From contig NC_021219.1 of the NCBI RefSeq assembly GCF_000392435.1, positions 30,001 through 62,000 on the forward strand: DNA of 32,000 bases, read 5' to 3'. The position numbers and the translations under genes were made by a program. The notes under the pieces are model-generated. The model worked only from the letters and a program-made list of their open reading frames with translations, was not told where the DNA came from and did no database searches. Shown here one piece after another: positions 1 to 32,000 of the stretch; the stretch's first letter is position 1, and each line of letters opens with the position of its first letter. The stretch is from Candidatus Saccharimonas aalborgensis. Its GTDB lineage: Bacteria; Patescibacteriota; Saccharimonadia; Saccharimonadales; Saccharimonadaceae.

Positions 1-1194
1 GCCGATAAACATGATGTAGGGAATAGCTTTTTTGACGGCAGTCTTGAGCTGCTTATCGATCTTTCGCCCGGTGAAATCAAGCTCAACATTGACTCCTTCA
101 CCGCGAAATTCCTTTGCCAATTTGGCGGCACCACGCAAGCTATCACCGACGACAATCATATAAATATCAGTTGTTGAGAAAAATGTTGGCAATAACCCAT
201 GTGTTTCGAGGAAAAGCTGCGTCATCGTCAGCCCAGGTGCAAACCCAACTGCACTGACCGGATCGGCGCCAAACAGGCTCACCAAACCATCATAGCGGCC
301 ACCACCGAAGAGCGCTCGGTTGTTTTCGGGGTGCGTGTCAAAAAATTCAAACACCGTGCCCGTGTAGTAGTCAAGCCCCCTCATGAGAGTGATGTCAAAT
401 ACGGCGTTTTTTACTCCTGCACGCTCGAGATGAGTGAAAAGCTCTTGAATTTCTTTGACAGCTTCGCTATCACGGATTGCTTCGGGGAGGTCGGCCATGG
501 TCTTGGCAGCGAGAAGCTGTGCAATCTTTTGTAGTCCCGTCGGTGCTGCCTCTTGCCCGAAGATGTCAATCGCTTGATCACGAAATGCATCCGACGCAAT
601 TTTACCTTTTCGATCAAACAGTTTTATCATCAACTGCGCCTGGATCGTGTCAAGCCCCAGGTAGTGTGCCATCATAAAGTTGATCACTTGCCGGTTATTG
701 ATACGGATGGCAAACATGTCATCAGCGGCGCCAAATGCTTTCATAAGGTCGTACCCCATCGAGATAATTTCTGCCTCAGGCAGTGCACCATCCATGCCGA
801 AAATATCGCAGTTGAGTTGCCAAAACTCGCGCTCACGACCCCTTTGAGGGCGTTCGTAGCGCATATACTGACCGATGTTGTACCATCGTGCCGGATAGGC
901 TATCTCCTGACGCCGCGCGGCGATCATACGACTGACACTCGGCGTCATTTCCGGTCGAATCGCTACTCGCCGTTCACCACGGTCAACAAACTGATAGGTT
1001 TGCTCATTGACAAGCTCTTGGCCACTCTTGGCAGCATATACTTCGATCGGCTCGAGTAATGGTGCGTCGTAGGCCTCATAGCCGTAACTTTTGACGATTC
1101 GCCGCCAGGTGCGAAAAATATAATTACGCACACGCATATCTTCGGGATACCAGTCCCGCGCGCCTTTGTACGATTCAGATGAGAGTGAGGTCAT
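1..1194 (-). CDS. hisS: Histidyl-tRNA synthetase; the C-terminal end runs off the window start
   Basis: The minus-strand frame is open from the ATG at 1194..1192 down to position 1. It is absent from the ORF track because no stop lies inside the window. My translation starts MTSLSSESYKGARDWYPEDMRVRNYIF. It contains FVDRGERRVAIRPEMTPSVSRM, RYERPQRGREREFWQLNCDIFG (class II motif 2-like) and ALFGGGRYDGLV (HisRS motif 3). Confidence 0.9.
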   Translation of the reverse strand, partial: MTSLSSESYKGARDWYPEDMRVRNYIFRTWRRIVKSYGYEAYDAPLLEPIEVYAAKSGQELVNEQTYQFVDRGERRVAIRPEMTPSVSRMIAARRQEIAYPARWYNIGQYMRYERPQRGREREFWQLNCDIFGMDGALPEAEIISMGYDLMKAFGAADDMFAIRINNRQVINFMMAHYLGLDTIQAQLMIKLFDRKGKIASDAFRDQAIDIFGQEAAPTGLQKIAQLLAAKTMADLPEAIRDSEAVKEIQELFTHLERAGVKNAVFDITLMRGLDYYTGTVFEFFDTHPENNRALFGGGRYDGLVSLFGADPVSAVGFAPGLTMTQLFLETHGLLPTFFSTTDIYMIVVGDSLRGAAKLAKEFRGEGVNVELDFTGRKIDKQLKTAVKKAIPYIMFIG

Positions 1195-1244
1195 AGTATC
1201 TGTTATTGTTTCATATTTCCCTGCATCACGCAAGGAAAAGCGGG

Positions 1245-1781
1245 TTAGTTCAACACGTGCTGTTGGAGCCACGCATACATGGCGATCCCTGCTGCCACGC
1301 CGACGTTGATACTACGGGTACTACCAAACTGCTCAATCGCGACAGTTTGCTCAGCGTAGTTGCGGAGTTTCTCAGAGATGCCCGGTCCCTCTGCGCCAAA
1401 TAGCAGCACACAGTCCTCGGGCAATAGTGCCTCGGATAGCAGAGACGCGTCTTCGCAGTTATCCACAGCAATCAGTCTCTTCTTGTACTGCCGCATCGCC
1501 GCCACGAAGCTATCGGCGTTGGCATAGTAATGCACATGCAGGTACTTGTCGGTCATCATGGCACCGCGCTTATTCCACTGGCGGCTGCCAATGATGTGCA
1601 CGTGCCGCACACCAAAGGCATTGGCACTGCGAACGATTGTTCCCATGTTGTAATCGCGTGACACATTATCGAGAGCGATTTCGAGCGAGATTGCGTCGGT
1701 ATCGAGATCAGCCACGATCGCATCGATCGACTTGCCTTTGTAAGCATCGATGAGGTTACGGCTATCGTGAGGGGCTTCCAT
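1245..1781 (-). CDS. SpoU/TrmH-family RNA 2'-O-methyltransferase
   Basis: 178-aa ORF. GTIVRSANAFGV, LLFGAEGPGIS and STRSINVGVAAGIAMY match the three SpoU methylase motifs. Confidence 0.8.
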   Translation of the reverse strand: MEAPHDSRNLIDAYKGKSIDAIVADLDTDAISLEIALDNVSRDYNMGTIVRSANAFGVRHVHIIGSRQWNKRGAMMTDKYLHVHYYANADSFVAAMRQYKKRLIAVDNCEDASLLSEALLPEDCVLLFGAEGPGISEKLRNYAEQTVAIEQFGSTRSINVGVAAGIAMYAWLQQHVLN

Positions 1782-1846
1782 ATTTTTTAGTATACAAAAA
1801 ACACGCCGATTTCGACGTGCTGACTATGAGCTAGAGAGGGTTTTCC

Positions 1847-1970
1847 CCGAGAGACAGGTCTCACCTACCATTCGCGCCGAAGCGCCAGGTCAGTGATCCA
1901 GTGTCTCTCGGGTATTCACCCCCTACGCGGTTGGAGTTCTGGCACGGCGCGGTGAAGCGCAGTGCCAGAA
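1847..1970 (-). terminator. Two strong hairpins in the 3' region of the GC-rich 104-aa gene
   Basis: Hairpin 1 pairs TTCTGGCAC (1937-1945) with GTGCCAGAA (1962-1970), plus an inner GCGC/GCGC extension. Hairpin 2 is a perfect 10-bp inverted repeat, CCGAGAGACA (1847-1856) with TGTCTCTCGG (1902-1911). Both lie just downstream of the minus-strand stop at 1981. No clear U-tract follows, so terminator function is inferred. Confidence 0.45.
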
Positions 1971-1980
1971 CCAGGACGGA

Positions 1981-2384: not shown

Positions 2385-2413
2385 ATTATAGCATAAGCCT
2401 TAATTTTTGTCAA
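2385..2413 (-). promoter_or_regulatory. Sigma70-type promoter for the 104-aa gene
   Basis: On the minus strand, TTGACA (2413..2408), a 17-nt spacer, then TATAAT (2390..2385). It sits in an AT-rich patch about 90 nt upstream of the start codon. Confidence 0.6.
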
Positions 2414-2551: not shown

Positions 2552-2638
2552 GCGGATATGGCGGAATTGGTAGACGCGCTAGCTTCAGGTGCTAGTGTAC
2601 GTAAGTACGTGGAGGTTCAAGTCCTCTTATCCGCACCA
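2552..2638 (+). tRNA. tRNA-Leu (anticodon CAG), type II with long variable arm, CCA encoded
   Basis: The acceptor stem is GCGGATA/TATCCGC. The D region is GGCGGAATTGGTAGACGC. The anticodon arm CTAGC-TTCAGGT-GCTAG gives anticodon CAG. The variable arm is GTAC-GTAA-GTAC and the T arm is GGAGG-TTCAAGT-CCTCT, followed by ACCA. Confidence 0.92.
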
Positions 2639-2700: not shown

Positions 2701-2812
2701 CGTCGTGGAGGTGAGAACTGCCAGTGGTAGTTCGGAAACGAATCTTCCGACGAAAGCTATGCTTTCTACGCGCGAGTTCGGGGGTCGCGGAACGTGACCA
2801 AGTCCTCTTATC
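2701..2812 (+). repeat. tRNA-Leu-linked conserved structured element, copy A (candidate ncRNA or att remnant)
   Basis: Copy A shares GTGGNGGTGAGAACTGCC...GTTCG..AA.GAAACG with copy B (7947-8066) and aligns with copy C (7620-7740). Hairpin H1 is at 2715-2733 and H2 (GAAAGC-TAT-GCTTTC) at 2752-2766. It ends in CAAGTCCTCTTATC (2799-2812), identical to T-loop/acceptor positions 2618-2631 of the upstream tRNA. Confidence 0.55.
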
Positions 2813-2839
2813 ATTGGTGGAGTATTAGAGTAAACTGCG

Positions 2840-7619: not shown

Positions 7620-7740
7620 GTGAAATTGGTATACACGTATGCCTTAGGTGAGAGCCGCCAGTGGCGGGTCGCAAGGGAGTCCACTCTTGAAAGCTGTGCT
7701 TTCAAAGATGTGACGACGGGGTCGCGCTAGCGTGACCATA
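7620..7740 (+). repeat. tRNA-Leu-linked structured element, copy C, fused to a 29-nt 5' fragment of tRNA-Leu(TAG)
   Basis: Positions 7620-7648 (GTGAAATTGGTATACACGTATGCCTTAGG) are identical to tRNA positions 7805-7833, covering the D arm to anticodon-loop position 37. The sequence then continues into the element. H1 (GAGCCGCC-AGT-GGCGGGTC) is at 7652-7670 and H2 (TTGAAAGC-TGT-GCTTTCAA) at 7687-7705. The 3' part CGGGGTCGCG..CGTGACCA matches copy A. Confidence 0.5.
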
Positions 7741-7795
7741 TGCTAGGCCATATGCTCCTCGTCGTACATTGCGATATAATGTCCTTACAAATTAT

Positions 7796-7880
7796 GCGGA
7801 TGTGGTGAAATTGGTATACACGTATGCCTTAGGAGCATATGCCTCACGGCGTGCTGGTTCAAGTCCAGTCATCCGCACCA
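7796..7880 (+). tRNA. tRNA-Leu (anticodon TAG), CCA encoded
   Basis: The acceptor stem is GCGGATG/CATCCGC. The anticodon arm TATGC-CTTAGGA-GCATA gives anticodon TAG. A long variable region is followed by the T arm GCTGG-TTCAAGT-CCAGT, then ACCA. Confidence 0.9.
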
Positions 7881-8108: not shown

Positions 8109-8137
8109 TTGTTATTTTGTCAATTTTATGATAGAAT
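8109..8137 (+). promoter_or_regulatory. Sigma70-like promoter for the 475-aa gene
   Basis: TTGTTA (8109-8114), a 17-nt spacer, then TAGAAT (8132-8137), in a very AT-rich patch immediately before the GC-rich island. Confidence 0.5.
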
Positions 8138-8231: not shown

Positions 8232-9659
8232 ATGACAGCAAGGACAAGCGTGTTGCCGGCGCCCACATGGCACGGCACGCCTGCTAACCTGCAACACCAG
8301 TGGTTTGAGTTCCTGCGCGGGCACGCCCGGCAGCAGGCTCAGACTCGCCCAGCTCAGCTGAGGCGCGAACTGAGCTATGCCCAGTCCGACAACAGAGACG
8401 ATCGTGCTCAACTCCGTAGCTACGCGAACGAGAGTCGCAATCATCAGGAGAAACTCACTCGTCTGCGTGCGTCTGTTCGGACGTACAACGACGAGGACTA
8501 CTTGAACGCACTCGAAGCGCTCTTTGCCCTGCCCGAAGTCATCGCGACCCGGGTAGACAGGCATGGGGCGCTCGTCGTCCTGATTCGTCCGATCCGCAGC
8601 GACAGCCTTGATCTCGGTGACTTCGAGATCTCGTTTGATGATCTCGTTGCTGACTACAACTCATACATTGTGAGGTCTCGACTGACACAGGATGATGTCC
8701 GGTACCGCAACCTAAGTATGTGTGATAGTTTCGGCAATAACACCCACCTCTTCCGCGTTGATTCGCTCACTCGACAGCAATTCTGTGACTTCTACGCTAA
8801 CCTCGACCTTGCCGGACTTGTCCGTGCAATCTCGGAACAGATCAATGAAGTCACGGCTAGCTCCCGAGCGCTTCTCCAGCAAACAGTGCCCGGTGCCGAA
8901 CCGCTCTGGGATGGGTTCGTGGAGAATCCGCTCAAAGCGCTCAAGCAGCTGCAGAAGCGAGCCCTCGACCGGCATCAGCTCGCTCGTCAGATTCGCGAAC
9001 AGGAAAGACTTGTCGCCGACTACGACAGGGCCATGCGCGATCTCCGCGAACGCATTCGACAGAATGAGGCCGACATCCGCCGGATGGAAGCCGAATTGGT
9101 CGCCCTCGAGGCGACGGCGCGACGGCGTGGCGAGATCATCGACCTCGCTGACGCACGTCGGACGCTGCGATTCATCACCCACATGCCCGGGTTCCTCGGC
9201 ATGCGGTTCGACGAGGATGGCACCGCCGTCATTCATATCCGAACCAGCTGGGTGTATCGGGACCGGCGCTATGACCTCGGTGATTTCGAGTTGTGGCTTC
9301 GGCCCAACCGAGGTAACCACAAGGGATACGGTGTCGTGCCGATCCATGCAACACGCCTCCCCAGTGGGGGCAGAAGCACGACTTACTTCAATCGGTACGC
9401 CAGCCATCGTCCTGGTCTCAACGAGAATGACTGGTTCTGCTTCGGAGGGCGCAGCGGCGAGCTCGGCAACATGCTGAATGACGGTGATTTTGGACACTTC
9501 GTCAATATTGCAGTCAACTGCATGAACTCCGTGAACAATGCAGATAAACCAGGTCATGCCCACCACCTCCCTGTCATTCCAATGGAGGAAGTGTGGCGGC
9601 ACCAGCCGCGTACTCGTGCGCGGCGGTGGTTGGCAAGGGTGGCAATCGCCGCCAGCTGA
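8232..9659 (+). CDS. Two-module coiled-coil protein, 475 aa; the C-terminal module is a candidate E2/UBC-like domain (inference)
   Basis: The Shine-Dalgarno AAGGAGG (8215-8221) precedes the ATG at 8232. There is an internal duplication. Module 1 reads coiled coil..ALVVLIRPIRSDSLDLGDFEISF. Module 2 reads coiled coil..AVIHIRTSWVYRDRRYDLGDFELWL. Module 2 continues VVPIHATRLP...YASHRPGLNENDWFCFGG, which resembles the E2 layout of beta-meander, HPN-like loop and catalytic Cys (Cys403, codon 9438-9440). Confidence 0.6.
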   Translation: MTARTSVLPAPTWHGTPANLQHQWFEFLRGHARQQAQTRPAQLRRELSYAQSDNRDDRAQLRSYANESRNHQEKLTRLRASVRTYNDEDYLNALEALFALPEVIATRVDRHGALVVLIRPIRSDSLDLGDFEISFDDLVADYNSYIVRSRLTQDDVRYRNLSMCDSFGNNTHLFRVDSLTRQQFCDFYANLDLAGLVRAISEQINEVTASSRALLQQTVPGAEPLWDGFVENPLKALKQLQKRALDRHQLARQIREQERLVADYDRAMRDLRERIRQNEADIRRMEAELVALEATARRRGEIIDLADARRTLRFITHMPGFLGMRFDEDGTAVIHIRTSWVYRDRRYDLGDFELWLRPNRGNHKGYGVVPIHATRLPSGGRSTTYFNRYASHRPGLNENDWFCFGGRSGELGNMLNDGDFGHFVNIAVNCMNSVNNADKPGHAHHLPVIPMEEVWRHQPRTRARRWLARVAIAAS

Positions 9660-9687
9660 ACCCACTTTGGATCAGAAAACTACACCT

Positions 9688-9723
9688 CGGCGAGTCCGAG
9701 AGCACCCGCTCTCGGACTCGCCG
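9688..9723 (+). terminator. Perfect 15-bp hairpin after the 475-aa gene
   Basis: CGGCGAGTCCGAGAG, loop CACCCG, then CTCTCGGACTCGCCG. No U-tract follows on the + strand, so terminator function is inferred from position only. Confidence 0.5.
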
Positions 9724-9778
9724 AAAGGAGATTTATAGATAGGTAGCGATAAGTTGTGAATAATTTTTGGAAAAACTA

Positions 9779-9807
9779 TTGACGATTTATCAATAAAAGT
9801 TTATAAT
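9779..9807 (+). promoter_or_regulatory. Sigma70-type promoter for the Ubl gene
   Basis: TTGACG (9779-9784), a 17-nt spacer, then TATAAT (9802-9807), in an AT-rich patch. Confidence 0.6.
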
Positions 9808-9882
9808 CTGTATCATGCTGTGCGGGTCCGATACCCCACAGTAGCTCCACCCTCGCATCACCGATCAAGGGAGGCATTGCCC

Positions 9883-10128
9883 ATGTCCAACACCGCCACC
9901 ACCGCTTCTGTGAAGCTGCCCGGAAAGGCCGGCCGCGTCGACGTCACCGTGCCTGAGGGCTCGACCGTCGCCGACGTCCTGTTGGCCGCCGCGGACGCCT
10001 TGGGCGTCCTCGGCAACTTCGACCCCGAGTCGGTCGTCGCCGTCGTCAACAACGAGGAGGCCGACCTCCAGGACGCCGTCCCCGACGGTGCTCAGGTCGA
10101 CGGCACGACCAACGTCGCCAACGGCTGA
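9883..10128 (+). CDS. Ubiquitin-like beta-grasp protein (ThiS/MoaD-like), 81 aa, C-terminus ...NVANG
   Basis: The Shine-Dalgarno AAGGGAGG (9868-9875) precedes the ATG at 9883. The track ORF begins earlier at a GTG (9820). The sequence VDVTVPEGSTVADVLLAAADALG...VAVVNNEEADLQDAVPDGAQVDGTTNVANG-stop follows the ThiS/MoaD pattern (..vNg....d..L.dGD.v.i.p.v.GG). Gly is the last residue. Confidence 0.7.
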   Translation: MSNTATTASVKLPGKAGRVDVTVPEGSTVADVLLAAADALGVLGNFDPESVVAVVNNEEADLQDAVPDGAQVDGTTNVANG

Positions 10129-10466
10129 CTCGACGACTTCCTCGCCATTCGGACCATCCCCGTCGTAGGGGACCATCTAGGACCGAGTGGACCAACGAGA
10201 AGCGAAGTCCCGTCGGAATCGTGTGATGTTAGAGGGCCGTCCATCGTAGTAGTGTCTGTAGCGTGCGGAACCCGTCAAACGGTGCCGTTTCGTCTCCACT
10301 CAGCGGTGTTCGGAACTATATCCGTTTCAAGATCAAAGGGCTGCGCCTCTCTGGTATGTCGGCGATTCTGCTATTAGTAGAATCCTGTCGGCACGACGAC
10401 GAGGGCACCTCAGTAGTGAGCGACGGATCTCACATGTTCCCCCCGGGGGACAAATGGAGCGCATCA

Positions 10467-10526
10467 CCCGACACCCGTCGGGTTTGGGGCGCGGACACTT
10501 CGGTGACCGCGCCCCCTTCGCTTTTT
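10467..10526 (+). terminator. Tandem hairpin terminators closing the Ubl transcription unit
   Basis: The first hairpin is CCCGAC-ACCC-GTCGGG (10467-10482), followed by TTT. The second pairs GGGGCGCGG (10486-10494) with CCGCGCCCC (10507-10515), followed by CTTCGCTTTTT. Confidence 0.65.
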
Positions 10527-10534
10527 GAGAATAC

Positions 10535-10563
10535 TTGATTTTTTTGTTATTTTGTAGTATAAT
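10535..10563 (+). promoter_or_regulatory. Sigma70-type promoter for the JAB-E1 operon
   Basis: TTGATT (10535-10540), a 17-nt spacer, then TATAAT (10558-10563). Confidence 0.55.
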
Positions 10564-10645
10564 AGAAGTGGCATTTTCTAGGTCTATTCCTGGGGTGCTC
10601 GACCCTTTACACCCTAGGCCCACACGAGACAAGGAGTCTTCTACT

Positions 10646-11278
10646 ATGCGCATCCTCTCTGCTCCGTTGACCGCGAAGGACGCACCTAAATTGGTCGTGC
10701 CGACACTCTTCATTTCCTCGAGTGACTACGACCTGATGCTCATCTACGCCCAGACGGCCTCACCACAAGAGGTGAACGGCTATGGGCTGATCGACCAGGG
10801 CGCCCGTGACCAGTTCATATTGTGCCCCGGTGGCCTCTTCATCACCGACCAGGTGGTGACGCAGGTCAGCGCCAAGCCGACTGCGGTCGGCAACGCCTAC
10901 GCCGGCAACCGTGCCGACGAGGCCGGCATGACGCTGGGGCTGCAGTGGCACAGCCACGGCAGGGGCGGAGCGTATCACTCGCCGACCGACATGAACACCG
11001 CCCACAACTACGGGAGGGTCGGCACCATCGACTGGATGATCTGGGTCGTCATCAATGACCGTGGCGACGTAGTCGCACGGCTCGAGCAGTACGCACCAAT
11101 CCGCATCGGCGTGCCGATGACCGTCATCGTCGTCCCCGACAACCACCAGCAGCTGCTGGAGCAGGTCACGGACGACATCGCGCGGCACGTCCGCGTCGAG
11201 ACGCCTCCGATACCATCCAAGGCGCTGGCGGCAACGCCAGCGTTCGTCAGCCCCGACAAGAAGGAGAACACCAAGTGA
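10646..11278 (+). CDS. JAB/MPN (JAMM) metallopeptidase, 210 aa
   Basis: The Shine-Dalgarno AAGGAG (10631-10636) precedes the ATG at 10646. The track ORF start at 10535 lies inside the promoter. The JAMM signature is complete: an upstream Glu in PQEVNGYG, then WHSHGRGGAYHSPTD (H-x-H-x7-S-x-x-D). Confidence 0.8.
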   Translation: MRILSAPLTAKDAPKLVVPTLFISSSDYDLMLIYAQTASPQEVNGYGLIDQGARDQFILCPGGLFITDQVVTQVSAKPTAVGNAYAGNRADEAGMTLGLQWHSHGRGGAYHSPTDMNTAHNYGRVGTIDWMIWVVINDRGDVVARLEQYAPIRIGVPMTVIVVPDNHQQLLEQVTDDIARHVRVETPPIPSKALAATPAFVSPDKKENTK

Positions 11279-11958
11279 GCAACGAGGACTTCGCTCCGAA
11301 CTGGTCCGACCAAGGCGGGATCTTCGATCCCGACAGCTTCGTCGGGACCATTACCATCATCGGGGCGGGGGGTATCGGCGCAAGCCTCATCCCCACGCTG
11401 GTCACCGTCGGTTTCCGGCGGTTCATCATCTACGACCCCGACCGGGTCGAGGACCGCAACATCGCCAGCCAACTGCTCTACAAGCCGCGTGACCTCTACC
11501 GCCCCAAGGTGGAGGTTTGTCAGGAGTACATCCAGACATACGGCGACTGTCAGGTGGTGGTCGAGGTACACCAGCGGCTGTTCACTGCCGAGGACCGCAT
11601 CACGACCCCAGTCGTCATCAGCGCCGTCGACAACCAAGACGCGCGTCGGATGATCTGGCAAGCCGTCCAGGACTCTCCCGACGTGCGACTCCTCATCGAC
11701 GGGCGTATCGGCAGCGAGGCGTTCACTTGCCTCGCCGTCGACATGCTCGACGACAGCGACTGGTATGACACCAAGTTCCTCGGCGACAACATCGCCCAGC
11801 TGCCCTGCGCCAGCCGTGCCATCGCCTACCCGGCGGTGGCGCTCGGTGCCGTCATCACACGGCACCTGGTGCACTGGCACGCTGGGGAGGAACTGCCACG
11901 GCGCGTCTCGCAGGACATGCGAGACCTCGTGCAACTCGTGATCCAGGCCCCGAAGTAA
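11275..11958 (+). CDS. Minimal ThiF/MoeB/E1-like adenylating enzyme, 227 aa
   Basis: The GTG start overlaps the JAB stop (GTGA at 11275-11278), with AAGGAG 8 nt upstream. Motifs are the Rossmann loop IIGAGGIGAS, YDPDRVEDRNIASQ (E1 nucleotide-binding Asp/Asn/Gln motif), RPKVEV, SAVDNQDARR and LPCASRAIAYPAVALG (Cys-containing loop). Confidence 0.8.
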   Translation: MSNEDFAPNWSDQGGIFDPDSFVGTITIIGAGGIGASLIPTLVTVGFRRFIIYDPDRVEDRNIASQLLYKPRDLYRPKVEVCQEYIQTYGDCQVVVEVHQRLFTAEDRITTPVVISAVDNQDARRMIWQAVQDSPDVRLLIDGRIGSEAFTCLAVDMLDDSDWYDTKFLGDNIAQLPCASRAIAYPAVALGAVITRHLVHWHAGEELPRRVSQDMRDLVQLVIQAPK

Positions 11959-12008
11959 GAGGGTCGTTCCGCTTCTCCACCACAGTAGCCAACTGTGCGA
12001 GGAGGAGC

Positions 12009-12073
12009 GGGATAACCGACCATAGATACAACAAGCTATGCTGATGAGCTGTAAACAGCGAATCGGTTATCCC
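12009..12073. other. 11-bp perfect inverted repeat at the right edge of the GC-rich island, between convergent genes
   Basis: GGGATAACCGA (12009-12019) pairs with TCGGTTATCCC (12063-12073), separated by 43 nt. It may be a bidirectional terminator or a boundary structure. Confidence 0.4.
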
Positions 12074-12766: not shown

Positions 12767-12768
12767 AC

Positions 12769-13314: not shown

Positions 13315-13318
13315 GGTA

Positions 13319-14174: not shown

Positions 14175-14203
14175 TTGACATTTTGCGACTTTATTATTAA
14201 AAT
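14175..14203 (+). promoter_or_regulatory. Sigma70-like promoter for the 65-aa ORF
   Basis: TTGACA (14175-14180), a 17-nt spacer, then TAAAAT (14198-14203). Confidence 0.5.
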
Positions 14204-14244
14204 AATGAAGTCCTATCTGTGTCAAACTGCGAGAAGAGGTACTA

Positions 14245-14442
14245 ATGGACAGGTTCTTTGTGGTAATCACCGTGCAAACGTTCTATCCCAGTCGAATGAA
14301 CACGCACTGCTGCATCGTCACTGACACCGATCCTGTTATGCGGTACAACACCGTATACCAAACGGTCTGCCGGCAGTATGGCCTTCCCGAGGAAGCCACT
14401 GCAACTCTGTTCTACTCGGTGGAGAAGATGCCCGCCGCCTAG
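14245..14442 (+). CDS. Small hypothetical protein, 65 aa
   Basis: A promoter lies upstream, an AGAGG Shine-Dalgarno-like site precedes the ATG, and terminator repeat R1 starts at the stop codon. No recognised motif. An antisense ORF (14242..14466) lacks these signals. Confidence 0.45.
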   Translation: MDRFFVVITVQTFYPSRMNTHCCIVTDTDPVMRYNTVYQTVCRQYGLPEEATATLFYSVEKMPAA

Positions 14443-14496
14443 CCCCGCCACCCGTTGTAGGCACACAGCCTCCGGGTGACCGGGGCTGTTTGCTTA
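14441..14496 (+). terminator. Terminator module R1 (first copy of a ~57-nt direct repeat)
   Basis: AGCCCCGCCACCCGTTGTAGGCACACAGCCTCCGGGTGACCGGGGCTGTTTGCTTA. The hairpin C-AGCC-(T)-CCGG GTGA CCGG-GGCT-G is at 14466-14488, followed by TTTGCTT. Confidence 0.65.
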
Positions 14497-14501: not shown

Positions 14502-14530
14502 TTGACAAAAATGATATTTTTTGATATAAT
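14502..14530 (+). promoter_or_regulatory. Consensus sigma70 promoter for the 102-aa membrane protein gene
   Basis: TTGACA (14502-14507), a 17-nt spacer, then TATAAT (14525-14530). Confidence 0.6.
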
Positions 14531-14629
14531 ATAAAATAACTTTCCGCCCCAGGAAAAGATGCGCGTCTTGTGCATTCCACAAAACTGGGTGCGACGGAAG
14601 TCGTACCCTCTACTCGAAGGAGCAGTTCT

Positions 14630-14938
14630 ATGTCTTGGTTCCTCAACGCTCTCGGCATCATCGTTATCGTCGTCGTCAGCATCTTCCTGATTCTCGTGGT
14701 CATGTTCATTGTGTCCATCTTCAGGGAGGCGAGCAAGCCCTGGACGCCGCTCACGCCGAAGCAAGTGGAGGCAGAGCACCTGATGGGACAACTTCGGGCC
14801 GTCTACGGAGACATCCAGTACGCCCGCGCACAACAGTTTGGGGAGTGGGATACCCTACGAGCCGCGGATATCGCGCGGCTTCAGGCAGAGGCTACCACAC
14901 TCCGAAACCAGCTTGCGAGACTCGGCTACGACGAGTAG
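14630..14938 (+). CDS. Single-pass membrane protein with a C-terminal coiled-coil-like region, 102 aa (GC-rich cassette)
   Basis: The Shine-Dalgarno GAAGGAG (14617-14623) precedes the ATG at 14630. The N-terminal TM segment is WFLNALGIIVIVVVSIFLILVVMFIVSIF. The track ORF start at 14570 lies in the leader. Confidence 0.6.
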   Translation: MSWFLNALGIIVIVVVSIFLILVVMFIVSIFREASKPWTPLTPKQVEAEHLMGQLRAVYGDIQYARAQQFGEWDTLRAADIARLQAEATTLRNQLARLGYDE

Positions 14939-14945
14939 TACCATA

Positions 14946-15002
14946 AGCCCCGATCACCCGTTGCAGGCACACAGCCTCCGGGTGACCGGGGCTGTTTGCT
15001 TA
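14946..15002 (+). terminator. Terminator module R2 (second copy of the ~57-nt direct repeat)
   Basis: AGCCCCGATCACCCGTTGCAGGCACACAGCCTCCGGGTGACCGGGGCTGTTTGCTTA. It is identical to R1 except for one indel and about two substitutions. The hairpin is at 14972-14994. Confidence 0.65.
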
Positions 15003-21222: not shown

Positions 21223-21236
21223 ATAATAGCTTACCC

Positions 21237-27428: not shown

Positions 27429-28547
27429 CTATTCACCCTGCTCTTCGATAGCAGCAAAGAGACCATCCTCAATGTTCTTCTTTGGTTTCTTTTCGGCAGG
27501 TTTGGCAGTCGCCGTTTCGATGTCAAGTTCAAAGCCGGTTAGGCGAGCAGCCAGACGAACGTTTTGACCACCGCGGCCAATGGCGATGCTTTGTTGATCC
27601 TCGGTCACAAATACCTTAGCCCGCTTTGTTTCCTTGTCAATCTCAACCTTTACCACCTCGGCAGGACTGAGGGCATTGCGGATGTACGTATCGATATTTT
27701 CGTCATAGGTCACGATATCGATTTTTTCCTGGTCGCCAATCTCATTCATGACAGCATTGACGCGCGTTCCGTGACCACCGACAAAGGTACCGACTGGATC
27801 GACTCCTGGAACCGTGCTCATAACTGCTAGTTTGGTGCGGCGTCCCGCTTCGCGAGCAATGCCCTTGATCTCTACTGCGCCGGTCTCCATCTCGGGAACT
27901 TCCTGACGAAATAGGTATTCGATAAAGGCTTCGTTGCCGCGGCTCAAAATGAGCTGTGGACCTCTGGTGTCGCGTTCGATATCCTTGATGAATACTTTGA
28001 GTCGGCTTCCAACTGAGTAGAACTCGCCCTGAATCTGCTCACTCTGCGGGATAATGCCCGTTGCTTTGCCAAGCTCAATCCGTACGACACGTGGCTCAAC
28101 TCGCTGTACGACACCGGTGACAACCGTACCGATCTTGTCTTCATACTCCGCTAGTACCACCTCGCGCTCTGCTTCTCGCAGACGCTGCAACACCACTTGC
28201 TTCGCCGTCTGAGCAGCCACACGTCCAAATGATATCACCTCGTGCTTTTCCTCGAGTATATCCTCGAGTTTAGCGTCTTTTTTGAGCTTTTTGGCCTCGG
28301 CAAGGCTGACTTCGATAGCAGGGTTGATAGCTTCTTCGACAACTTCGCGCTGGACATAAACAGTCGCCGTACCGTCGTTGATATTGAGCTCAGCGCGAAC
28401 TTCTTGCTCACGCTCACCATTATCACGGCGCCACGCGGCCGCAATTGCTTGTTCGATTATCTCGAGCACTGTTTCTTCGGGCAGATTTTTTTCTTCGGCA
28501 ATTGTCCGGACGGCAAGCGTCAGTTGTTTGATATTGAGATCTTCCAT
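27429..28547 (-). CDS. nusA: Transcription termination/antitermination factor NusA
   Basis: An N-terminal NusA domain is followed by an S1 domain (GTVVTGVVQRVEPRVVRIELG) and KH domains (GVDPVGTFVGGHGTRV, AIGRGGQNVRLA). I chose the ATG at 28547 (MEDLNIKQL), preceded by AAAGGA. Confidence 0.9.
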   Translation of the reverse strand: MEDLNIKQLTLAVRTIAEEKNLPEETVLEIIEQAIAAAWRRDNGEREQEVRAELNINDGTATVYVQREVVEEAINPAIEVSLAEAKKLKKDAKLEDILEEKHEVISFGRVAAQTAKQVVLQRLREAEREVVLAEYEDKIGTVVTGVVQRVEPRVVRIELGKATGIIPQSEQIQGEFYSVGSRLKVFIKDIERDTRGPQLILSRGNEAFIEYLFRQEVPEMETGAVEIKGIAREAGRRTKLAVMSTVPGVDPVGTFVGGHGTRVNAVMNEIGDQEKIDIVTYDENIDTYIRNALSPAEVVKVEIDKETKRAKVFVTEDQQSIAIGRGGQNVRLAARLTGFELDIETATAKPAEKKPKKNIEDGLFAAIEEQGE

Positions 28548-28647
28548 TACATCCTTTCCTGGGAGAGTGTGTTCTCCCTGATCATAAGGGATCATTAGTA
28601 TTTCTTACGAAAAACTCCGACCTGCCGGCCGGATGAGTACGTTTTTC

Positions 28648-28676
28648 ATATTAGCACACTAGGTTAAGAAAGTCAA
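28648..28676 (-). promoter_or_regulatory. Sigma70-like promoter upstream of nusA
   Basis: On the minus strand, TTGACT (28676..28671), a 17-nt spacer, then TAATAT (28653..28648). This shows that backbone genes use the same promoter style as the GC-rich cassettes. Confidence 0.5.
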
Positions 28677-29344
28677 GAACCGCGTTCGAGCAGCTCTAGT
28701 GCGCTCCAAACAAACGGGTGAGCACCCCTTCCTTTTCCCCTTAGGCACGGCTGGTCAATTAAGGTATAGTTTCCATCTTCATCAATAAACACATTACCGC
28801 CAAGGTTGTTTCCCCTTCGTAAGTCATTGACGAGTGTGCGCGAAACATACCTGCCGAGTTCTCTATCGAGCCTTGTTTCTACCGTATCGACGTGGGCATG
28901 AAGTGTCCGCATGGTTTCCGTATAATCAGCCTGGAAATCTCTTAAAGCTCCTCGCAACGATTCACCTGGAGCCATCTCAATTACCGAGACACCACGTTGA
29001 CCACCATCGGTGACAACAATAGGATGGCGGACCGCACTCACCCCCTCTGTGCTTTTTGATAAACGCTCGTAAAGGCCGTTCATGACCCGCTGCTGTATAA
29101 CCGCGTCGGCAGCAGACGGATGATACTTGATCACGAGACCAGTGGCACTATCGCGGACAACAAAGAGGTTCGGGTTGTAGCGCGAAACATGCGTGCTGAG
29201 TCGATCATCGCCATAACGTCTGCGCACCGCCACCACACTGCCTGTTACATAAGCAAGTTCAGCGATTTCTCTAGCTTCAGCAATAGCACCTGGATCTATG
29301 TCGGGTGTCAGGTATGAGCTGTCTATTACTTCCATTTTTTTCAT
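28673..29344 (-). CDS. Hypothetical protein, 223 aa (possible protein kinase-like/phosphotransferase fold; low confidence)
   Basis: I chose the start MKKMEVIDSS at 29344. The 113 N-terminal residues of the track ORF read through into the GC-rich cassette and are Arg/Gly/Pro-rich junk. NVFIDEDGNYTLIDQP resembles the catalytic-loop/DFG region of small kinases. Confidence 0.55.
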   Translation of the reverse strand: MKKMEVIDSSYLTPDIDPGAIAEAREIAELAYVTGSVVAVRRRYGDDRLSTHVSRYNPNLFVVRDSATGLVIKYHPSAADAVIQQRVMNGLYERLSKSTEGVSAVRHPIVVTDGGQRGVSVIEMAPGESLRGALRDFQADYTETMRTLHAHVDTVETRLDRELGRYVSRTLVNDLRRGNNLGGNVFIDEDGNYTLIDQPCLRGKGRGAHPFVWSALELLERGS

Positions 29345-29418
29345 AGCTATAGAGCATCTTTCTAGCAGAATCGCCCGCCCCCGGGAGGGAGCGGAACGAC
29401 CTGCTGGCCGAGCTCTCT

Positions 29419-29670
29419 CTAGGAGCGGGCATGAGGTGTCGGTTTGACCGGCACCACCTTGTAGACACTTGGGCGAGGCCCTTGGTTCAGAGAGAATGCG
29501 ACCAGTTCGGCTGCGCGCTGAGCCTGAGCGAAGGCTGAGCAGGCCGAGAATGACCCACGGGCGACCTCGACCCCCGTGGGAGCATCCGCTCCTACCTGAG
29601 TACGAAAACTGGTCACCGGCGGGTACTTCATGACGACGTGCGAGGTGCTGTCCGCACCTTCGAACTCCAT
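29419..29670 (-). CDS. Small hypothetical protein, 83 aa (third gene of the GC-rich operon)
   Basis: The ATG at 29670..29668 shares one base with the upstream stop TGA (29672..29670). GC-rich codons. No recognised motif. Confidence 0.5.
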   Translation of the reverse strand: MEFEGADSTSHVVMKYPPVTSFRTQVGADAPTGVEVARGSFSACSAFAQAQRAAELVAFSLNQGPRPSVYKVVPVKPTPHARS

Positions 29671-29891
29671 CACCTGTTTTCACCTCCTGTTGTCAGCAGT
29701 TCCTCGAGCCAGACGTCCTGCACCGGTATCACCTTTCGCTCAAAGAGCGAGAAGGTGCCAGCGAGCAGGCCGTAGAACGTGATACCCATCAGCGAACCGC
29801 CGATGAGTATAACCATCATGACGTAGCACAGGATGACCTCGAAACCGAGACCGGCTATCGCCACCGGCGCGTACCAGAGCGGGAAATCCAT
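29670..29891 (-). CDS. Small membrane protein, 73 aa, two predicted TM helices
   Basis: The hydrophobic segments are WYAPVAIAGLGFEVILCYVMMVILIGG and ITFYGLLAGTFSLF. The start lies 1 nt after the upstream stop. Confidence 0.55.
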   Translation of the reverse strand: MDFPLWYAPVAIAGLGFEVILCYVMMVILIGGSLMGITFYGLLAGTFSLFERKVIPVQDVWLEELLTTGGENR

Positions 29892-29892
29892 C

Positions 29893-30141
29893 TCAGTATT
29901 CCTGTGTCATTGCCCAGCTCAATGGAGCCTGAGCTCCTGGGAAGCTGACGAGCCGGATGATGTACTCAACTCCCGGCTCATCGACGTCTGGTTGATCGGC
30001 GATGAAGCCGACACAGGTCAGTTCGGCTGTCGTCGGTCCGTAGACCGACAAGCGAGCTCGGGCACACGCCGGAGAGTCCGGGGTGACCCGGAAAACCACA
30101 TACCAATTCTCCCAATGTCCTTCAGCCGCCACGCGTATCAC
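29893..30141 (-). CDS. Small hypothetical protein, 79-82 aa (first gene of the GC-rich operon)
   Basis: The GTG at 30141 directly abuts AGAGG. The GTG at 30132 has better Shine-Dalgarno spacing. GC-rich codons. No recognised motif. Confidence 0.5.
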   Translation of the reverse strand: MIRVAAEGHWENWYVVFRVTPDSPACARARLSVYGPTTAELTCVGFIADQPDVDEPGVEYIIRLVSFPGAQAPLSWAMTQEY

Positions 30142-30185
30142 CTCTTTCGTAGGATCGAACTATTGTGTGGGGTTGATCAATTTCT

Positions 30186-30214
30186 ATATTACAACTTTAT
30201 TGACTATTTATCAA
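30186..30214 (-). promoter_or_regulatory. Sigma70-like promoter for the three-gene operon
   Basis: On the minus strand, TTGATA (30214..30209), a 17-nt spacer, then TAATAT (30191..30186). Its spacer shares TCAATAAA at the same offset with the Ubl promoter. Confidence 0.5.
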
Positions 30215-30230
30215 GTTTACAAAAAAACCT

Positions 30231-30347
30231 GAATCTCAACCCTCCTCCGACAGACAGTTGGCCCTGATGGGCCAAGGCCCGCCAAGAGCGAAGGCTGATT
30301 TAGTTAGCGGCGGGCCGGTTGTCTGGAGTGGGGAGAGGATGGGTTTG
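30231..30347 (+). repeat. Long imperfect palindrome repeat, copy 2
   Basis: A 40-nt block (CCGACAGACAGTTGGCCCTGATGGGCCAAGGCCCGCCAAG) and a 29-nt block (AGCGGCGGGCCGGTTGTCTGGAGTGGGGA) are identical to copy 1. The central loop and outer arms differ. Confidence 0.6.
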
Positions 30348-30373
30348 TGTCTCTCGTGCTACACTGGTACGTG

Positions 30374-31402
30374 ATGCAACTCGCTGATTTTCATTATGAT
30401 ATTCCCGAAAAACTGATCGCGACCACGCCACCGACAGTACGCGGTGATGCGCGGCTGCTAGTTCTTGACCGCCAGAGCGGCACTGTTAGTGATCGACACT
30501 ACCCAGATATCGTCGACTACCTCGGGCTTGGCGACGTGCTTATCATCAATGACACCAAAGTCATCAAGGCTCGATTGATAACAACCAAACAAACCGGTGG
30601 CACACGCGAGCTTGTGCTTGTCGAGAAGCACGGTCGCAGTGACGACTGGCATACCCACAAGGTTATCTACCGACGCAAGTTAGCTGTTGGGGACAAACTC
30701 TCTGTCGGAGCCGATACGCTGACGGTGGAGGAACTACTTGATGGTGGCATGGCAATCATCAAAAGTGAGCGTGACCTGCTACAAATCGCCGAAGAACACG
30801 GCTCGGTGCCGCTGCCACCGTATATGCGGCGCGACGCAACGCCAGCAGATATCGAGCGATACCAGACGATATTTGCCCGTGAGCAGGGGTCGGTCGCCGC
30901 TCCGACGGCAAGTCTCAATATGACAGAGGAGACCCTCTCACGACTCCGCGACAAAGGCATTGTCGTCGTCTATGCAACGCTGCATGTCGGCCTCGGTACG
31001 TTTCTGCCTATTCGCGTCGAAGATGTTACCGATCATCATATGCATAAGGAGTATTTTGAGATTCCCGCAGTCACTGTAAGCGCGATACGTGATGCCAAGG
31101 CAAAGGGTAAGCGAGTTGTCGCCCTCGGCACGACTGTGACACGCACACTTGAGTATGCTCACGAAGCCATCCTGGCCGGGCCGCCTAGAGACCTCTCGGG
31201 CGAAGCAGATATCTTTATGTATCCTGGCTATAGCTTTAAGATTATCGACGGCCTGATCACGAACTTTCATATGCCAGATAGCACCGTCCTCATGCTGACC
31301 GCGGCCTTTGCAGGATGGGATAAGCTCAAGCCTGCCTATGAACACGCTATCGACAAAAGCTATCGGTTCTTTAGCTACGGCGACAGTATGTTGATCCTGT
31401 AG
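30374..31402 (+). CDS. queA: S-adenosylmethionine:tRNA ribosyltransferase-isomerase QueA
   Basis: MQLADFHYDIPEKLIATTPPTVRGDARLLVL, YQTIFAREQGSVAAPTASLN and HVGLGTF are typical QueA blocks. I chose the ATG at 30374; the track ORF starts at 30347 inside the repeat. Confidence 0.9.
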   Translation: MQLADFHYDIPEKLIATTPPTVRGDARLLVLDRQSGTVSDRHYPDIVDYLGLGDVLIINDTKVIKARLITTKQTGGTRELVLVEKHGRSDDWHTHKVIYRRKLAVGDKLSVGADTLTVEELLDGGMAIIKSERDLLQIAEEHGSVPLPPYMRRDATPADIERYQTIFAREQGSVAAPTASLNMTEETLSRLRDKGIVVVYATLHVGLGTFLPIRVEDVTDHHMHKEYFEIPAVTVSAIRDAKAKGKRVVALGTTVTRTLEYAHEAILAGPPRDLSGEADIFMYPGYSFKIIDGLITNFHMPDSTVLMLTAAFAGWDKLKPAYEHAIDKSYRFFSYGDSMLIL

Positions 31403-31419
31403 CCCACAAAAAGCAAACT

Positions 31420-31467
31420 GCCCGCCCCCGAGGGAGCGAGCAGTCGCTACAACCTCGAGGGACGGGC
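31420..31467. terminator. GC-rich hairpin between convergent queA and the membrane protein gene
   Basis: GCCCGCCCCCGAGG (31420-31433) pairs with CCTCGAGGGACGGGC (31453-31467) over about 13 bp, with one mismatch and one bulge. Confidence 0.5.
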
Positions 31468-31468
31468 G

Positions 31469-32000
31469 CTAAGAAACCGAAACTGATACTACCTTCCGCC
31501 TCATAATGATGGTGATCGCCATCAACACGTCGCAGAGAAGGAGATGCAATGGCGCCAAGTAGAGGAACCACTCTGGCGAACCAACGGCAACGACATTGAG
31601 TGCCGCGGCTACTGAGCCAAGCCCCCACATCATCAATGGCTCGGACGACGGATCGCGCCAGGTCTTGATGAGGCTGAGCGTGATACCGATGGTATCGGCA
31701 ACGAGGATGCAGACGAGCGCCATCAGCGCCGAGCTCATCGCGAACCACAGCGTGATACTGGTGAGCGCGATGACGAGCGCAAGTGAGTTTGGCCAGTCAA
31801 GTCCTCCCTCTCCCCGACCGCGCGTCAGCGACAGGCAAAATATCGTGAGGTTGACCACTACGAACCAGCCAAAGACAAACAGGCTGTCGCGTGAGCCAAG
31901 GGCGAACTGAGAGCCGAAGATCACGAGCGCGGTCATCAGGAAGATGAACCACGTATAGCGATGGGGCTGCGCTTGACGCCGCCAAATGGCTTTGACGTAG
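31469..32000 (-). CDS. Multi-pass membrane protein (GC-rich); the N-terminus may lie beyond the window end
   Basis: The track ORF is 31469..31936 (155 aa, several hydrophobic helices). The same frame stays open to position 32000 (..YVKAIWRRQAQPHRYTWFIFL-MTALVIF), so the start is unresolved. Confidence 0.55.
   Translation of the reverse strand, partial: YVKAIWRRQAQPHRYTWFIFLMTALVIFGSQFALGSRDSLFVFGWFVVVNLTIFCLSLTRGRGEGGLDWPNSLALVIALTSITLWFAMSSALMALVCILVADTIGITLSLIKTWRDPSSEPLMMWGLGSVAAALNVVAVGSPEWFLYLAPLHLLLCDVLMAITIIMRRKVVSVSVS

Follow-up and report, generated by a model that had tools for sequence, protein, structure and literature searches.

GC-rich accessory gene cassettes, one of them encoding a predicted ubiquitin-like module, interrupt the housekeeping backbone of Candidatus Saccharimonas aalborgensis

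The 32,000-nt stretch of DNA analysed here (the window) belongs to the chromosome of Candidatus Saccharimonas aalborgensis (TM7/Saccharibacteria), whose closed genome measures 1,013,781 bp, and covers locus tags L336_0033-0037 and their neighbours. Our analyses revealed that at least six small, GC-rich accessory gene units (cassettes) interrupt its housekeeping backbone, and that the largest of them, cassette 2, carries four genes which most likely encode, judging from their protein sequences, an E2-less ubiquitin-like (Ubl) conjugation system specific to Saccharibacteria. By Pfam, the backbone holds hisS, spoU, tRNA-Leu(CAG), a pilin-like gene, a dCMP deaminase gene, a FAD-linked oxidase (FADox) gene, tRNA-Leu(TAG), a CDP-alcohol phosphatidyltransferase gene, rsmD, recG, tyrS, the gene of a class A penicillin-binding protein (PBP1), PIN-TRAM, radA, clpC, nusA and queA. 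The features under study are collected in Table 1, in which L-numbers, as in the text, denote loci or contigs of related genomes, metagenome-assembled genomes (MAGs) and metagenomes among them.

Table 1. Location of cassette, backbone and RNA features in the window or, where an L-number is given, in related loci. Promoters and terminators are predicted; promoter scores are matches to the consensus; aa, amino acids; SD, Shine-Dalgarno site; UTR, untranslated region; GC3, GC fraction at third codon positions.
Feature	Location	Strand	GC3	Details
hisS (backbone)	1..1194	-		truncated by the left window edge; stop-free frame; 99.5% identity with L168 HisS, a gene with tRNA-synt_His Pfam matches
SpoU-family rRNA/tRNA methylase (backbone)	1245..1781	-		Pfam PF00588, E 7.8e-30; adjoins HisS in relatives too
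Terminator-like hairpin, cassette 1	1800..1821	-		9 bp and T-run
C1	1981..2286	-	0.91	101-aa four-helix protein; GC 0.72; GC-rich 3'UTR to ~1845
Promoter, cassette 1	2385..2413	-		12/12 and extended TG; 89-nt leader
tRNA-Leu(CAG)	2552..2638	+		backbone landmark adjoining cassette 1
tRNA-Leu(TAG)	7796..7880	+		conserved backbone landmark; cassette 2 on its 3' side
Promoter of the 475-aa gene, cassette 2	8109..8137	+		9/12 and extended TG; AT-rich patch; 94-nt leader
Gene 1, 475-aa protein	8232..9659	+	0.67	alignment and AlphaFold2 model
Hairpin closing the 475-aa unit	9685..9726			19 bp, GC-rich
Promoter, Ubl	9779..9807	+		11/12; 75-nt leader
Gene 2, Ubl	9883..10128	+	0.93	81-aa ubiquitin-like (beta-grasp, SAMP/MoaD-type) protein ending ...TNVANG-stop
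Spacer/3'UTR of the Ubl unit	10129..10534	+		non-coding, ~400 nt; terminator at ~10486-10526
Promoter, JAB-E1	10535..10563	+		10/12; 82-nt leader
Gene 3, JAB	10646..11278	+	0.86	210-aa JAB/JAMM metalloprotease; Pfam Prok-JAB 1.5e-6, 28.5 bits vs cut-off 25
Gene 4, E1	11275..11958	+	0.86	227-aa minimal E1/ThiF-type adenylating enzyme; Pfam ThiF 2.2e-18; overlaps the JAB gene
Inverted repeat	12009..12073			11 bp, between the convergent E1 and CDP-alcohol phosphatidyltransferase genes; read from sequence
Mini-cassette	14175..14496	+	0.72 (ORF)	promoter 14175-14203 (11/12), SD, 65-aa ORF 14245-14442, 48-nt terminator repeat copy 1 (14449-14496)
Cassette 3	14502..15002	+		promoter 14502-14530 (12/12), 99-nt leader, terminator repeat copy 2 (14955-15002)
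C3	14630-14938	+	0.75	102-aa single-pass membrane and coiled-coil protein
Cassette 4	29372..30214	-	0.63-0.75	promoter 30214..30186 (9/12), three-gene operon, hairpin ~29395-29372
Cassette 4 genes	30141-29893; 29891-29670; 29673-29419	-		82 aa; 73 aa with two transmembrane helices (C4_73); 84 aa
Cassette 5	31416..32000	-	0.74	cut by the window edge; membrane protein gene (C5) 31469 to at least 31936; 13-bp terminator 31445..31416
Orphan-like GC3-rich genes at the C1 position	L006 4797-5267; L007 21031-21633; L012 20548-20892; L014 17417-17932, 18142-18606; L041 20211-20711			
~108-nt structured RNA, window	2708-2815; 7645-7753; 7955-8061	+		
~108-nt structured RNA, L168	1312-1418; 1621-1730; 5298-5405; 5609-5714			
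~108-nt structured RNA, elsewhere	L003 15801-15906; L006 5875-5983, 9055-9163; L041 19754-19861; L010; L005			

The cassettes stand out by composition. Sliding GC reaches 0.72 at 1951-2250, 0.68 at 9901-10200, ~0.65 at 10650-12000, 0.61 at 14701-15000, ~0.60 at 29401-30150 and ~0.58 from 31500 to the end, against ~0.50 in the backbone and a window mean of 0.52. With curated coordinates, GC3 is 0.78±0.10 (0.63-0.93) in ten cassette genes and 0.51±0.08 (0.29-0.66) in 23 backbone genes (Mann-Whitney p=5e-6). The labels were partly picked by composition, but the absence of the cassette genes from related genomes supports them independently. Third positions carry most of the shift (ΔGC3 0.27, vs ΔGC1 0.05 and ΔGC2 0.03): GC1 is slightly raised (0.65 vs 0.60, p=0.03) and GC2 is not (p=0.12). 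An earlier reading of the bare letters (the original prediction) had marked at least five GC-rich segments here, all of which are borne out by sliding GC and per-gene GC3, and had overlooked a sixth unit, the mini-cassette. It had also rightly guessed a backbone of hisS/recG/tyrS/clpC type and an epibiont, the organism being a Saccharibacterium. Its claim that composition switches within a few nucleotides did not hold, as the actual change spans ~40-150 nt at the boundaries of coding sequences.

Each unit is equipped with predicted expression signals of its own. A consensus scan recovered all seven promoters that had been proposed, each in its place. Two of them, at 2413..2385 and 14502-14530, match the consensus at 12/12 positions and carry an extended TG, a combination for which we estimate ~0.01 chance occurrences per 64 kb of strand; those at 9779-9807 and 10535-10563 score 11/12 and 10/12. 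The promoters at 8109-8137, at 30214..30186 and before the backbone gene nusA (28676..28648) reach 9/12 each, near chance level, and the idea that the nusA promoter has the same form as the others thus stands for its position and is weakened by a score that is common by chance. Sites of at least 9/12 number 28 in the first 16 kb (12.5±3.4 expected) and 20 in the second (15±3.6 expected). An SD follows each of the leaders, as proposed, and five of these (89, 94, 75, 82 and 99 nt) fall within the proposed 75-100 nt while one is shorter (44 nt). Hairpins close most units (1821..1800, 9685-9726 with 19 bp, ~10486-10515, 14976-14991, ~29372-29395 and 31445..31416); the expected strong hairpin fails after the E1 gene, where an 11-bp inverted repeat encloses a long loop (12009-12019 / 12063-12073). 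Cassette 2 consists of three transcription units with mid-GC spacers rather than a single block. A C-rich sequence, ACCCYWC, was considered as a shared leader motif and discarded, as it is not enriched (16 vs 10.3±3.6 expected; 3 vs 2.75 for a stricter pattern).

All window proteins were mapped onto 80 RecG-anchored Saccharibacteria loci with 65-100% RecG identity. The order ClpC-hyp336-RadA-PIN/TRAM-PBP1-TyrS-RecG-hyp268-RsmD-…-FADox-…-SpoU is kept in almost all of them. The E1 gene is present in three of the 80, JAB in two, Ubl and C3 in one each, and C1 in none of the 31 loci that have SpoU. Empty sites for cassette 2 are found in L002 and L007, where tRNA-Leu(TAG), and nothing else, lies between RsmD (or the CDP-alcohol transferase) and FADox. 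The GC-rich units are accessory. The original prediction had itself proposed looking for such empty sites in relatives, and had accepted that cassettes conserved at the same positions in all relatives would speak against it; the orthologous sites turned out to be nearly all without cassettes. Its comparison with morons is apt, since the cassettes are independent transcription units between backbone genes: like morons or genomic islets they lie between conserved genes with their own predicted promoter and terminator, differ from the backbone in composition (GC3 0.78 vs 0.51), and are present or absent among syntenic relatives (in 0-3 of the 80 loci). Unlike these, they reside in a cellular chromosome and not in a prophage, are GC-richer than their host, and have no mobility genes near; accessory DNA is usually AT-richer than its host. 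Synteny of the queA region, where cassettes 4 and 5 lie, is not kept beyond the species.

The cassettes are also the fast-evolving part of the locus at the protein level. Between strains, DNA identity is ~97% over the backbone and ~90% across 9694-14500 and 27430-31468, and protein identity falls from 98-100% in backbone proteins to 62% in Ubl, 68% in C1, 69% in C4_73 and 78% in JAB; the cassette 4 genes are 69-90% identical between flanks of 98-99.5%. The ratio of nonsynonymous to synonymous divergence (dN/dS) is 0.88 for C1, 0.65 for Ubl, 0.45 for C4_73 and 0.43 for C3, and 0.2-0.9 in the cassettes overall vs 0.01-0.3 in the backbone.

The first gene of cassette 2 encodes a 475-aa protein, whose AlphaFold2 model (predicted local distance difference test score, pLDDT, 78.9) is built of one unit, a long coiled-coil helix and then a beta domain, that occurs twice. 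RYDLGDFE and WFCFGGR are conserved motifs of the protein, its tail is rich in Arg, and its model gave no fold match. An exhaustive profile search brought together 351 cluster representatives of the family, of which 63 reach E<=1e-30; many weaker matches share just the C-terminal repeat. The named members are all 'Candidatus Saccharibacteria', and the amino-acid composition of the family is mid-GC (GARP/FYMINK median 1.3). For two different full-length members of this family (P0151 and P0153) and an E1 that is 60% identical to that of the window (P0115), the longest contig on record has 13,120 bp in each case; they probably lie on one contig with two paralogous modules or a duplicated partner gene.

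The other three proteins resemble the parts of a conjugation pathway. The C-terminal V-x-N-G of the Ubl is invariant in eight homologues; its profile finds SAMP2, SAMP1 and TtuB as the best PDB matches, all weak (E 0.02-0.5), and the homologues have weak ThiS and SAMP2 Pfam matches. GC1/2/3 of its gene are 0.72/0.46/0.93. In the JAB protein the predicted JAMM/MPN+ catalytic motif E...HxH...S..D is intact, with E42, H102, H104, S112 and D115 invariant in the family alignment, and the PDB profile matches include Rpn11 (4e-6) and archaeal JAMM1. The E1 has a GxGGIG motif and an invariant Cys178 and matches the adenylation domains of UBA3, UBA2 and ThiF; the named members of its family are Saccharimonadaceae, and it scores far under the curated NCBIfam cut-offs of ThiF (TIGR02356, 57/275 bits), UbaA (SAMPActivE1UbaA, 43.1/450) and PRTRC-ThiF (39/145). 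Neither Pfam nor PADLOC nor NCBIfam gave an E2/UBC match for any of the four proteins of the module. Across PHROGs, PADLOC, NCBIfam and Pfam, nine of the ten cassette proteins gave no match, JAB having its Pfam Prok-JAB match all the same.

The gap between the Ubl and JAB genes is free of genes in all homologous modules, where it measures 312-565 nt. The gap is non-coding, because its conservation is at the nucleotide level in all frames, and a hidden E2 or small ORF within it was rejected on this ground. In the window it folds better than 100 of 100 shuffled sequences (z = -3.3). Rfam gave no match for this stretch, which may be a regulatory RNA or a 3'UTR that is long and structured.

Taken together with these motifs, the gene set suggests a simple cycle. 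The minimal E1 would adenylate the exposed C-terminal glycine of the Ubl (...VANG) and possibly hand it to Cys178; the Ubl would then be joined to a target without an E2, and the JAMM protease would take it off again. The always-linked 475-aa coiled-coil protein would be the target, the sensor or the effector. By analogy, the module would work most like archaeal SAMPylation (E1, Ubl and JAMM, no E2). It shares with the archaeal SAMP/UbaA/JAMM1 and Thermus TtuB/TtuC systems a small predicted beta-grasp protein with a free C-terminal glycine, an E1 of ThiF/MoeB size, a JAMM isopeptidase and the lack of an E2. It differs from them in that the sequence matches are weak, the E1 staying below the UbaA threshold; in that the Ubl ends in ...ANG and not in ...GG; in the 475-aa protein, which has no counterpart there; and in being accessory and mobile rather than part of sulfur metabolism.

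Other systems resemble the module in part. Bil (bacterial ISG15-like) anti-phage operons (BilA Ubl, BilB E2, BilC JAB, BilD E1) also combine Ubl, JAB and E1, and the best PADLOC match of the E1 is BilD (2.8e-7, weak, 109/453 model positions), while the JAB profile weakly matches BilC. However, no module protein matches BilB, and the gap between Ubl and JAB is non-coding; the E1 has 227 aa for the 453 positions of BilD, and the 475-aa partner does not occur in Bil. Type II CBASS, with its E1-E2 fusion Cap2 and its JAB protein Cap3, likewise couples E1-type adenylation to reversal by a JAB, and weak PADLOC E1-E2 matches are seen, but they cover just the adenylation segment; the module has neither a CD-NTase nor an E2 domain and has a dedicated Ubl, whereas CBASS conjugates the C-terminus of the CD-NTase itself. 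The sulfur-carrier pairs ThiS/ThiF, MoaD/MoeB and CysO/Mec+/MoeZ agree in E1 fold and size, in the C-terminal glycine of the Ubl and, for the CysO type, in the JAB, and the best NCBIfam matches are ThiF models. The scores lie below the equivalog cut-offs, no thi, moa or cys gene (thiamine, molybdopterin or cysteine synthesis) adjoins the module, and the module is strain-variable, mobile and fast-evolving, unlike these systems.

Our comparison with other genomes revealed that the module is mobile and that its promoters travel with it. The 475/Ubl/JAB/E1 set occupies the same FADox-RsmD site in L081, lies beside EF-Tu in L164 and beside YchF in L165, and is found with a different gene order beside purA in L167; L082 and L083 hold parts of it. 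At 29-62% protein identity, the module is richer in GC3 than its neighbours in seven independent genomic contexts (0.74-0.95 vs 0.47-0.59 for the flanks in L081, 0.68-0.90 vs 0.36-0.47 in L082, 0.69-0.87 vs ~0.55 in L164, 0.69-0.99 vs 0.31-0.44 in L165 and 0.80-0.95 vs 0.32-0.53 in L167), and Ubl has the highest GC3 of the module in every case. Six other genomic contexts, unrelated to that of the window, show the three module promoters again at the module, together with leaders of ~75-105 nt and the SDs; in four genomes the score of the Ubl promoter is 11-12/12. It follows that the AT-rich promoters are part of the cassette, contrary to the original picture of foreign coding parts plugged into native, local expression signals.

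The position of cassette 2, directly 3' of tRNA-Leu(TAG) with an exact 22-nt copy of the tRNA 3' end between them (8045-8066) and with empty sites at the same tRNA, recalls tRNA-linked islands. Unlike such islands, it has no integrase and no distal copy of an attachment (att) site; the sole tRNA 3'-end copy lies 185 nt from the tRNA and is part of a ~108-nt element that is also found without the cassette. Integration at tRNA genes was rejected as the usual route of insertion, as no tRNA adjoins the module in L164, L165 or L167 and the tRNA-fragment repeats near cassette 2 form part of this separate structured RNA element. An analogous gene set occurs at 4004-6911 of L166, a low-GC (0.32) phage- or plasmid-like contig with a primase-like gene, a SNF2 helicase and many small ORFs. 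Its products are a protein of 372 aa, a ThiS-like one of 78 aa whose C-terminal extension is rich in Lys and Ser, a protein of 238 aa and an E1 sharing 33% identity with that of the window; this E1/ThiS-like/JAB set is not GC-rich.

C1, the gene of cassette 1, was followed individually. GC1/2/3 are 0.76/0.49/0.91, and the AlphaFold2 model is all-helical (pLDDT 79.5) and has no PDB match. C1 is a real protein, because 49 columns are invariant across the ten homologues of its family alignment. The gene is at the same locus in five genomes. Its synonymous divergence (dS 0.25) is at the level of its neighbours (HisS 0.31, SpoU 0.24) but its nonsynonymous divergence is high (dN 0.22 vs 0.002-0.018), and it follows that the protein has evolved fast in place. 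In a search of 5.8 billion proteins C1 had nine relatives, the sole named one from S. aalborgensis and none actinobacterial. The amino-acid composition of C1 and Ubl is GC-type as well (GARP/FYMINK 2.6-2.7).

Several of the slots are used repeatedly. GC-rich islands (0.64-0.73, in backbones of ~0.50) occur at the same positions in relatives, namely beside SpoU, between RecG and hyp268 and between RsmD and FADox, and these recurrent slots hold different orphan-like genes with GC3 of 0.82-0.93. In the hyp268-RecG slot, the two tandem mini-cassettes both end in a 48-nt direct repeat (98% identical; terminator-like hairpin, z = -4.1). The copies of this repeat in L001 (12091-12113, 13225-13247) are 1134 bp apart, vs 506 bp in the window, and enclose an extra 179-aa gene of ordinary GC3 (0.44); the repeat may be a recombination point for cassette swapping. 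The L001 homologue of the 65-aa ORF has kept both termini and diverged in the middle (55% identity, dS ~1). A 74-aa minus-strand ORF at 14175-14448 (hyp74) is antisense to the 65-aa ORF and probably spurious. A homologue of C5 (70%) lies in a different slot in L078 and is GC-rich too.

Small genes with GC3 of 0.82-0.93 and an orphan-like character were also seen at the position of C1, in the SpoU-adjacent slot of the FADox-SpoU region, in L006, L007, L012, L014 and L041. Some of them end in '...AL.WAG...', which resembles the '...KKALAWAGRT' of C1, and they may be highly divergent relatives of C1 or independent occupants of the slot. The TyrS-RecG gap of L015 (9499-9852), L019 (9526-9984), L023, L030, L031 and L034, Nanosynbacter-like genomes of which some come from oral samples, contains a small GC-rich gene whose product has a single membrane pass and a coiled coil, an architecture like that of C3 in another slot. 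An automatic clustering of GC3-rich ORFs across the loci was abandoned, being swamped by antisense artefacts inside backbone genes, and the plus-strand ORFs at 199-534 (hyp111) and 553-1059 (hyp168) were likewise rejected as antisense artefacts within hisS.

Two neighbouring genes vary without being GC-rich. The CDP-alcohol phosphatidyltransferase gene beside cassette 2 (12073-12687, minus strand) is patchy, occurring in 5 of 80 related loci at 36-88% identity; it is 88% identical between strains, yet its GC3 is ordinary (0.48), and it may belong to the variable region rather than to the backbone. The '336-aa' ORF has its true start at 29344 and so encodes 223 aa (hyp223, 28673-29344, minus strand); its GC3 is 0.46, yet strains diverge strongly in it (84% aa identity, dS 0.81) despite the adjoining nusA (99.5%). 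Hypervariability thus also occurs outside the GC-rich genes.

The RNA element near the tRNA-Leu genes, undescribed so far, is ~108 nt long and is predicted to fold as a four-way junction of a closing stem and three hairpins; it occurs in the window and in six other Saccharimonas-like loci. Most often the element is found on the same strand as a tRNA-Leu(TAG) or tRNA-Leu(CAG) gene, 70-79 nt downstream of it and behind a terminator-like hairpin; some copies are also seen upstream, at 44-48 nt. When a covariance model was made from the three copies of the window, it recovered 14 full-length copies at 42-118 bits. Their alignment, itself fitted to this model, has 93% of its cells paired, vs 32-40% in slid controls; compensatory changes are seen in 21 of 30 pairs, and none of 500 shuffles reached the observed values. 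The element has no Rfam match. Exact copies of parts of tRNA-Leu(TAG), positions 10-38 (29 nt) at 7620-7648 and the 22-nt stretch from T-loop to CCA end noted above, each lie exactly 185 nt from the matching part of the tRNA and are fused directly to a copy of the RNA, and the RNA copy that follows tRNA-Leu(CAG) likewise has 14 nt of the T-arm of that tRNA at its end; these fragments could stem from a duplication or be what is left of an intron or an att site. A dispersed intergenic repeat of ~95-110 nt (88-100% identical; 21233-21341 and 30227-30341 in the window, ~248-361, 9881-9990 and 12850-12942 in L084) folds as a long branched hairpin (z = -4.4 to -4.7) and could be an element like repetitive extragenic palindromes or miniature inverted-repeat transposable elements (REP/MITE-like), or a small RNA.

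On balance, we lean towards the view that complete units were imported from a GC-richer pool and have since eroded slowly toward the composition of the recipient, and that they are laterally acquired accessory genes, probably related to conflict. A few recurrent inter-operon slots in the syntenic backbone contain small accessory transcription units. Each starts with a predicted promoter of sigma-70 type within an AT-rich patch, continues with a leader of 40-100 nt, an SD and one to three genes, and closes with a terminator hairpin. Their products are lineage-restricted and fast-evolving at the protein level and their coding parts rich in GC3; in this view the genes would circulate laterally and probably be used in conflict with phages, hosts or competitors. 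Polarised third-position changes in C1 support the idea that this gene is out of equilibrium and losing GC, as would be expected of import from a GC-richer source: 13 go from GC to AT and one from AT to GC (p=0.002), vs 10:11 in the adjoining SpoU.

Several observations weigh against the import of complete units. The C1 test counts 14 events, and parsimony as well as universal AT-biased mutation inflate changes from GC to AT. No GC-rich donor came to light, as C1, the 475-aa protein and the E1 had just Saccharibacteria-named or nameless relatives among the 5.8 billion proteins, and Saccharibacteria genomes span only 32-51% GC (PMC7427843). In the window there is no integrase, no transposase and no clear att duplication flanking the cassettes; a Pfam scan of its ORFs, in agreement with what had been read from the letters, found no integrase or transposase domain. 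In the 475-aa gene, substitutions are near balance (59:43, not significant) and imply an equilibrium GC3 of ~0.61 vs ~0.40-0.45 for HisS. Module homologues that have diverged to 29-62% identity all remain GC3-rich; long residence should equilibrate GC3, and therefore repeated re-import or a GC-maintaining force is needed. On the putative role in defence or conflict, PADLOC offers no more than the weak match to BilD. The repeated acquisition of high-GC genes that was originally proposed, if taken as recent, is complicated by the distant homologues of the Ubl module, which are GC3-rich in all genomes examined.

A distinctly less probable alternative is that GC-richness was made and is kept in place, in loci that recombine often under diversifying selection and whose third positions are driven toward G/C by GC-biased gene conversion, or by direct selection on codons or mRNA; the genes could then be long-resident. 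It agrees with the persistence of high GC3 in the module across seven contexts, with the nearly balanced 475-aa gene, with the concentration of the shift in third positions, and with the fact that strains differ most in the cassette regions; moreover, every relative with a name is a Saccharibacterium, and none of the known Saccharibacteria has enough GC to have been the donor. It fits poorly with C1, which is shedding GC and whose neighbour-like dS gives no sign of extra recombinational import, and with the GC-type amino acids of C1 and Ubl. Gene conversion should enrich non-coding parts as well, yet the promoters and leaders of the cassettes are AT-rich, and the equally variable slot gene of L001 and the hypervariable hyp223 have ordinary GC3. 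Rather unlikely in our estimation, and combining mobility with active maintenance, is a phylum-specific mobile pool of conflict cassettes, in which a new E2-independent Ubl system would act on or through the 475-aa protein in phage defence or in interaction with the actinobacterial host; here gene conversion or selection, for example for matching a host-like codon or expression environment, would keep the genes GC-rich.

The original prediction had named a high-GC actinobacterial host, or its phages, as a possible donor, a source that we now consider improbable. In its favour, the codon-position profile of C1 and Ubl is typical of high-GC Actinobacteria, their amino-acid bias points the same way, and C1 is eroding as a recent import would. 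The distant E1/Ubl module on the phage-like contig L166 might also suggest such a route, but that contig is low-GC and its module is not GC-rich. Moreover, no actinobacterial name appeared among the matches of C1, the 475-aa protein and the E1, nor among the sampled members of the wider 475-aa family; a tblastn search of 50,697 phage genomes with the E1 and the 475-aa protein found nothing, the 475-aa family has no relative in IMG/VR, and in PHROGs no cassette protein had a match except to generic ThiF-like families. Saccharibacteria do live attached to Actinobacteria, but TM7x shows no strong signal of host-derived genes (PMC7427843).

It is more doubtful still that the cassettes are old lineage genes, inherited vertically without transfer and orphan-looking only through fast evolution. 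C1 at one locus in five genomes with neighbour-like dS, the FADox-RsmD site of the module that the window shares with the distant L081, and the small GC-rich genes that recur at the same slots, some with the 'AL.WAG' motif, would all suit such a history. The unrelated sites of the module in L164, L165 and L167, the other slot of the C5 homologue in L078 and the true empty sites in close relatives speak against it, and it cannot explain a GC3 of 0.9 that is now eroding. Assembly chimeras joining reads of a high-GC organism to the Saccharimonas backbone, a possibility raised for checking at the outset and suggested by nothing more than the sharpness of the composition change, are practically excluded because the same GC junctions recur in assemblies made independently by different projects (the closed genome of 1.01 Mb and the MAG or metagenome contigs L001, L084, L085, L168 and L170), cassette proteins are recorded on 40-78 contigs, and homologous modules in other species show the same mosaic.

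In tiny, syntenic and host-dependent genomes such as these, strain-variable genes are the best candidates for determinants of host range, phage resistance and competition, and our analyses indicate how they can be recognised from sequence, namely as GC3-rich, fast-evolving genes with their own promoters in a few recurrent slots. Three objects are now available for testing: a phylum-confined E2-less tagging module, its uncharacterised, moderately large partner family of 351 representatives, and a structured RNA linked to tRNA-Leu. These accessory genes exceed every known genome of the phylum in GC, and their excess has lasted across deep divergence, which bears on how base composition evolves in reduced genomes.

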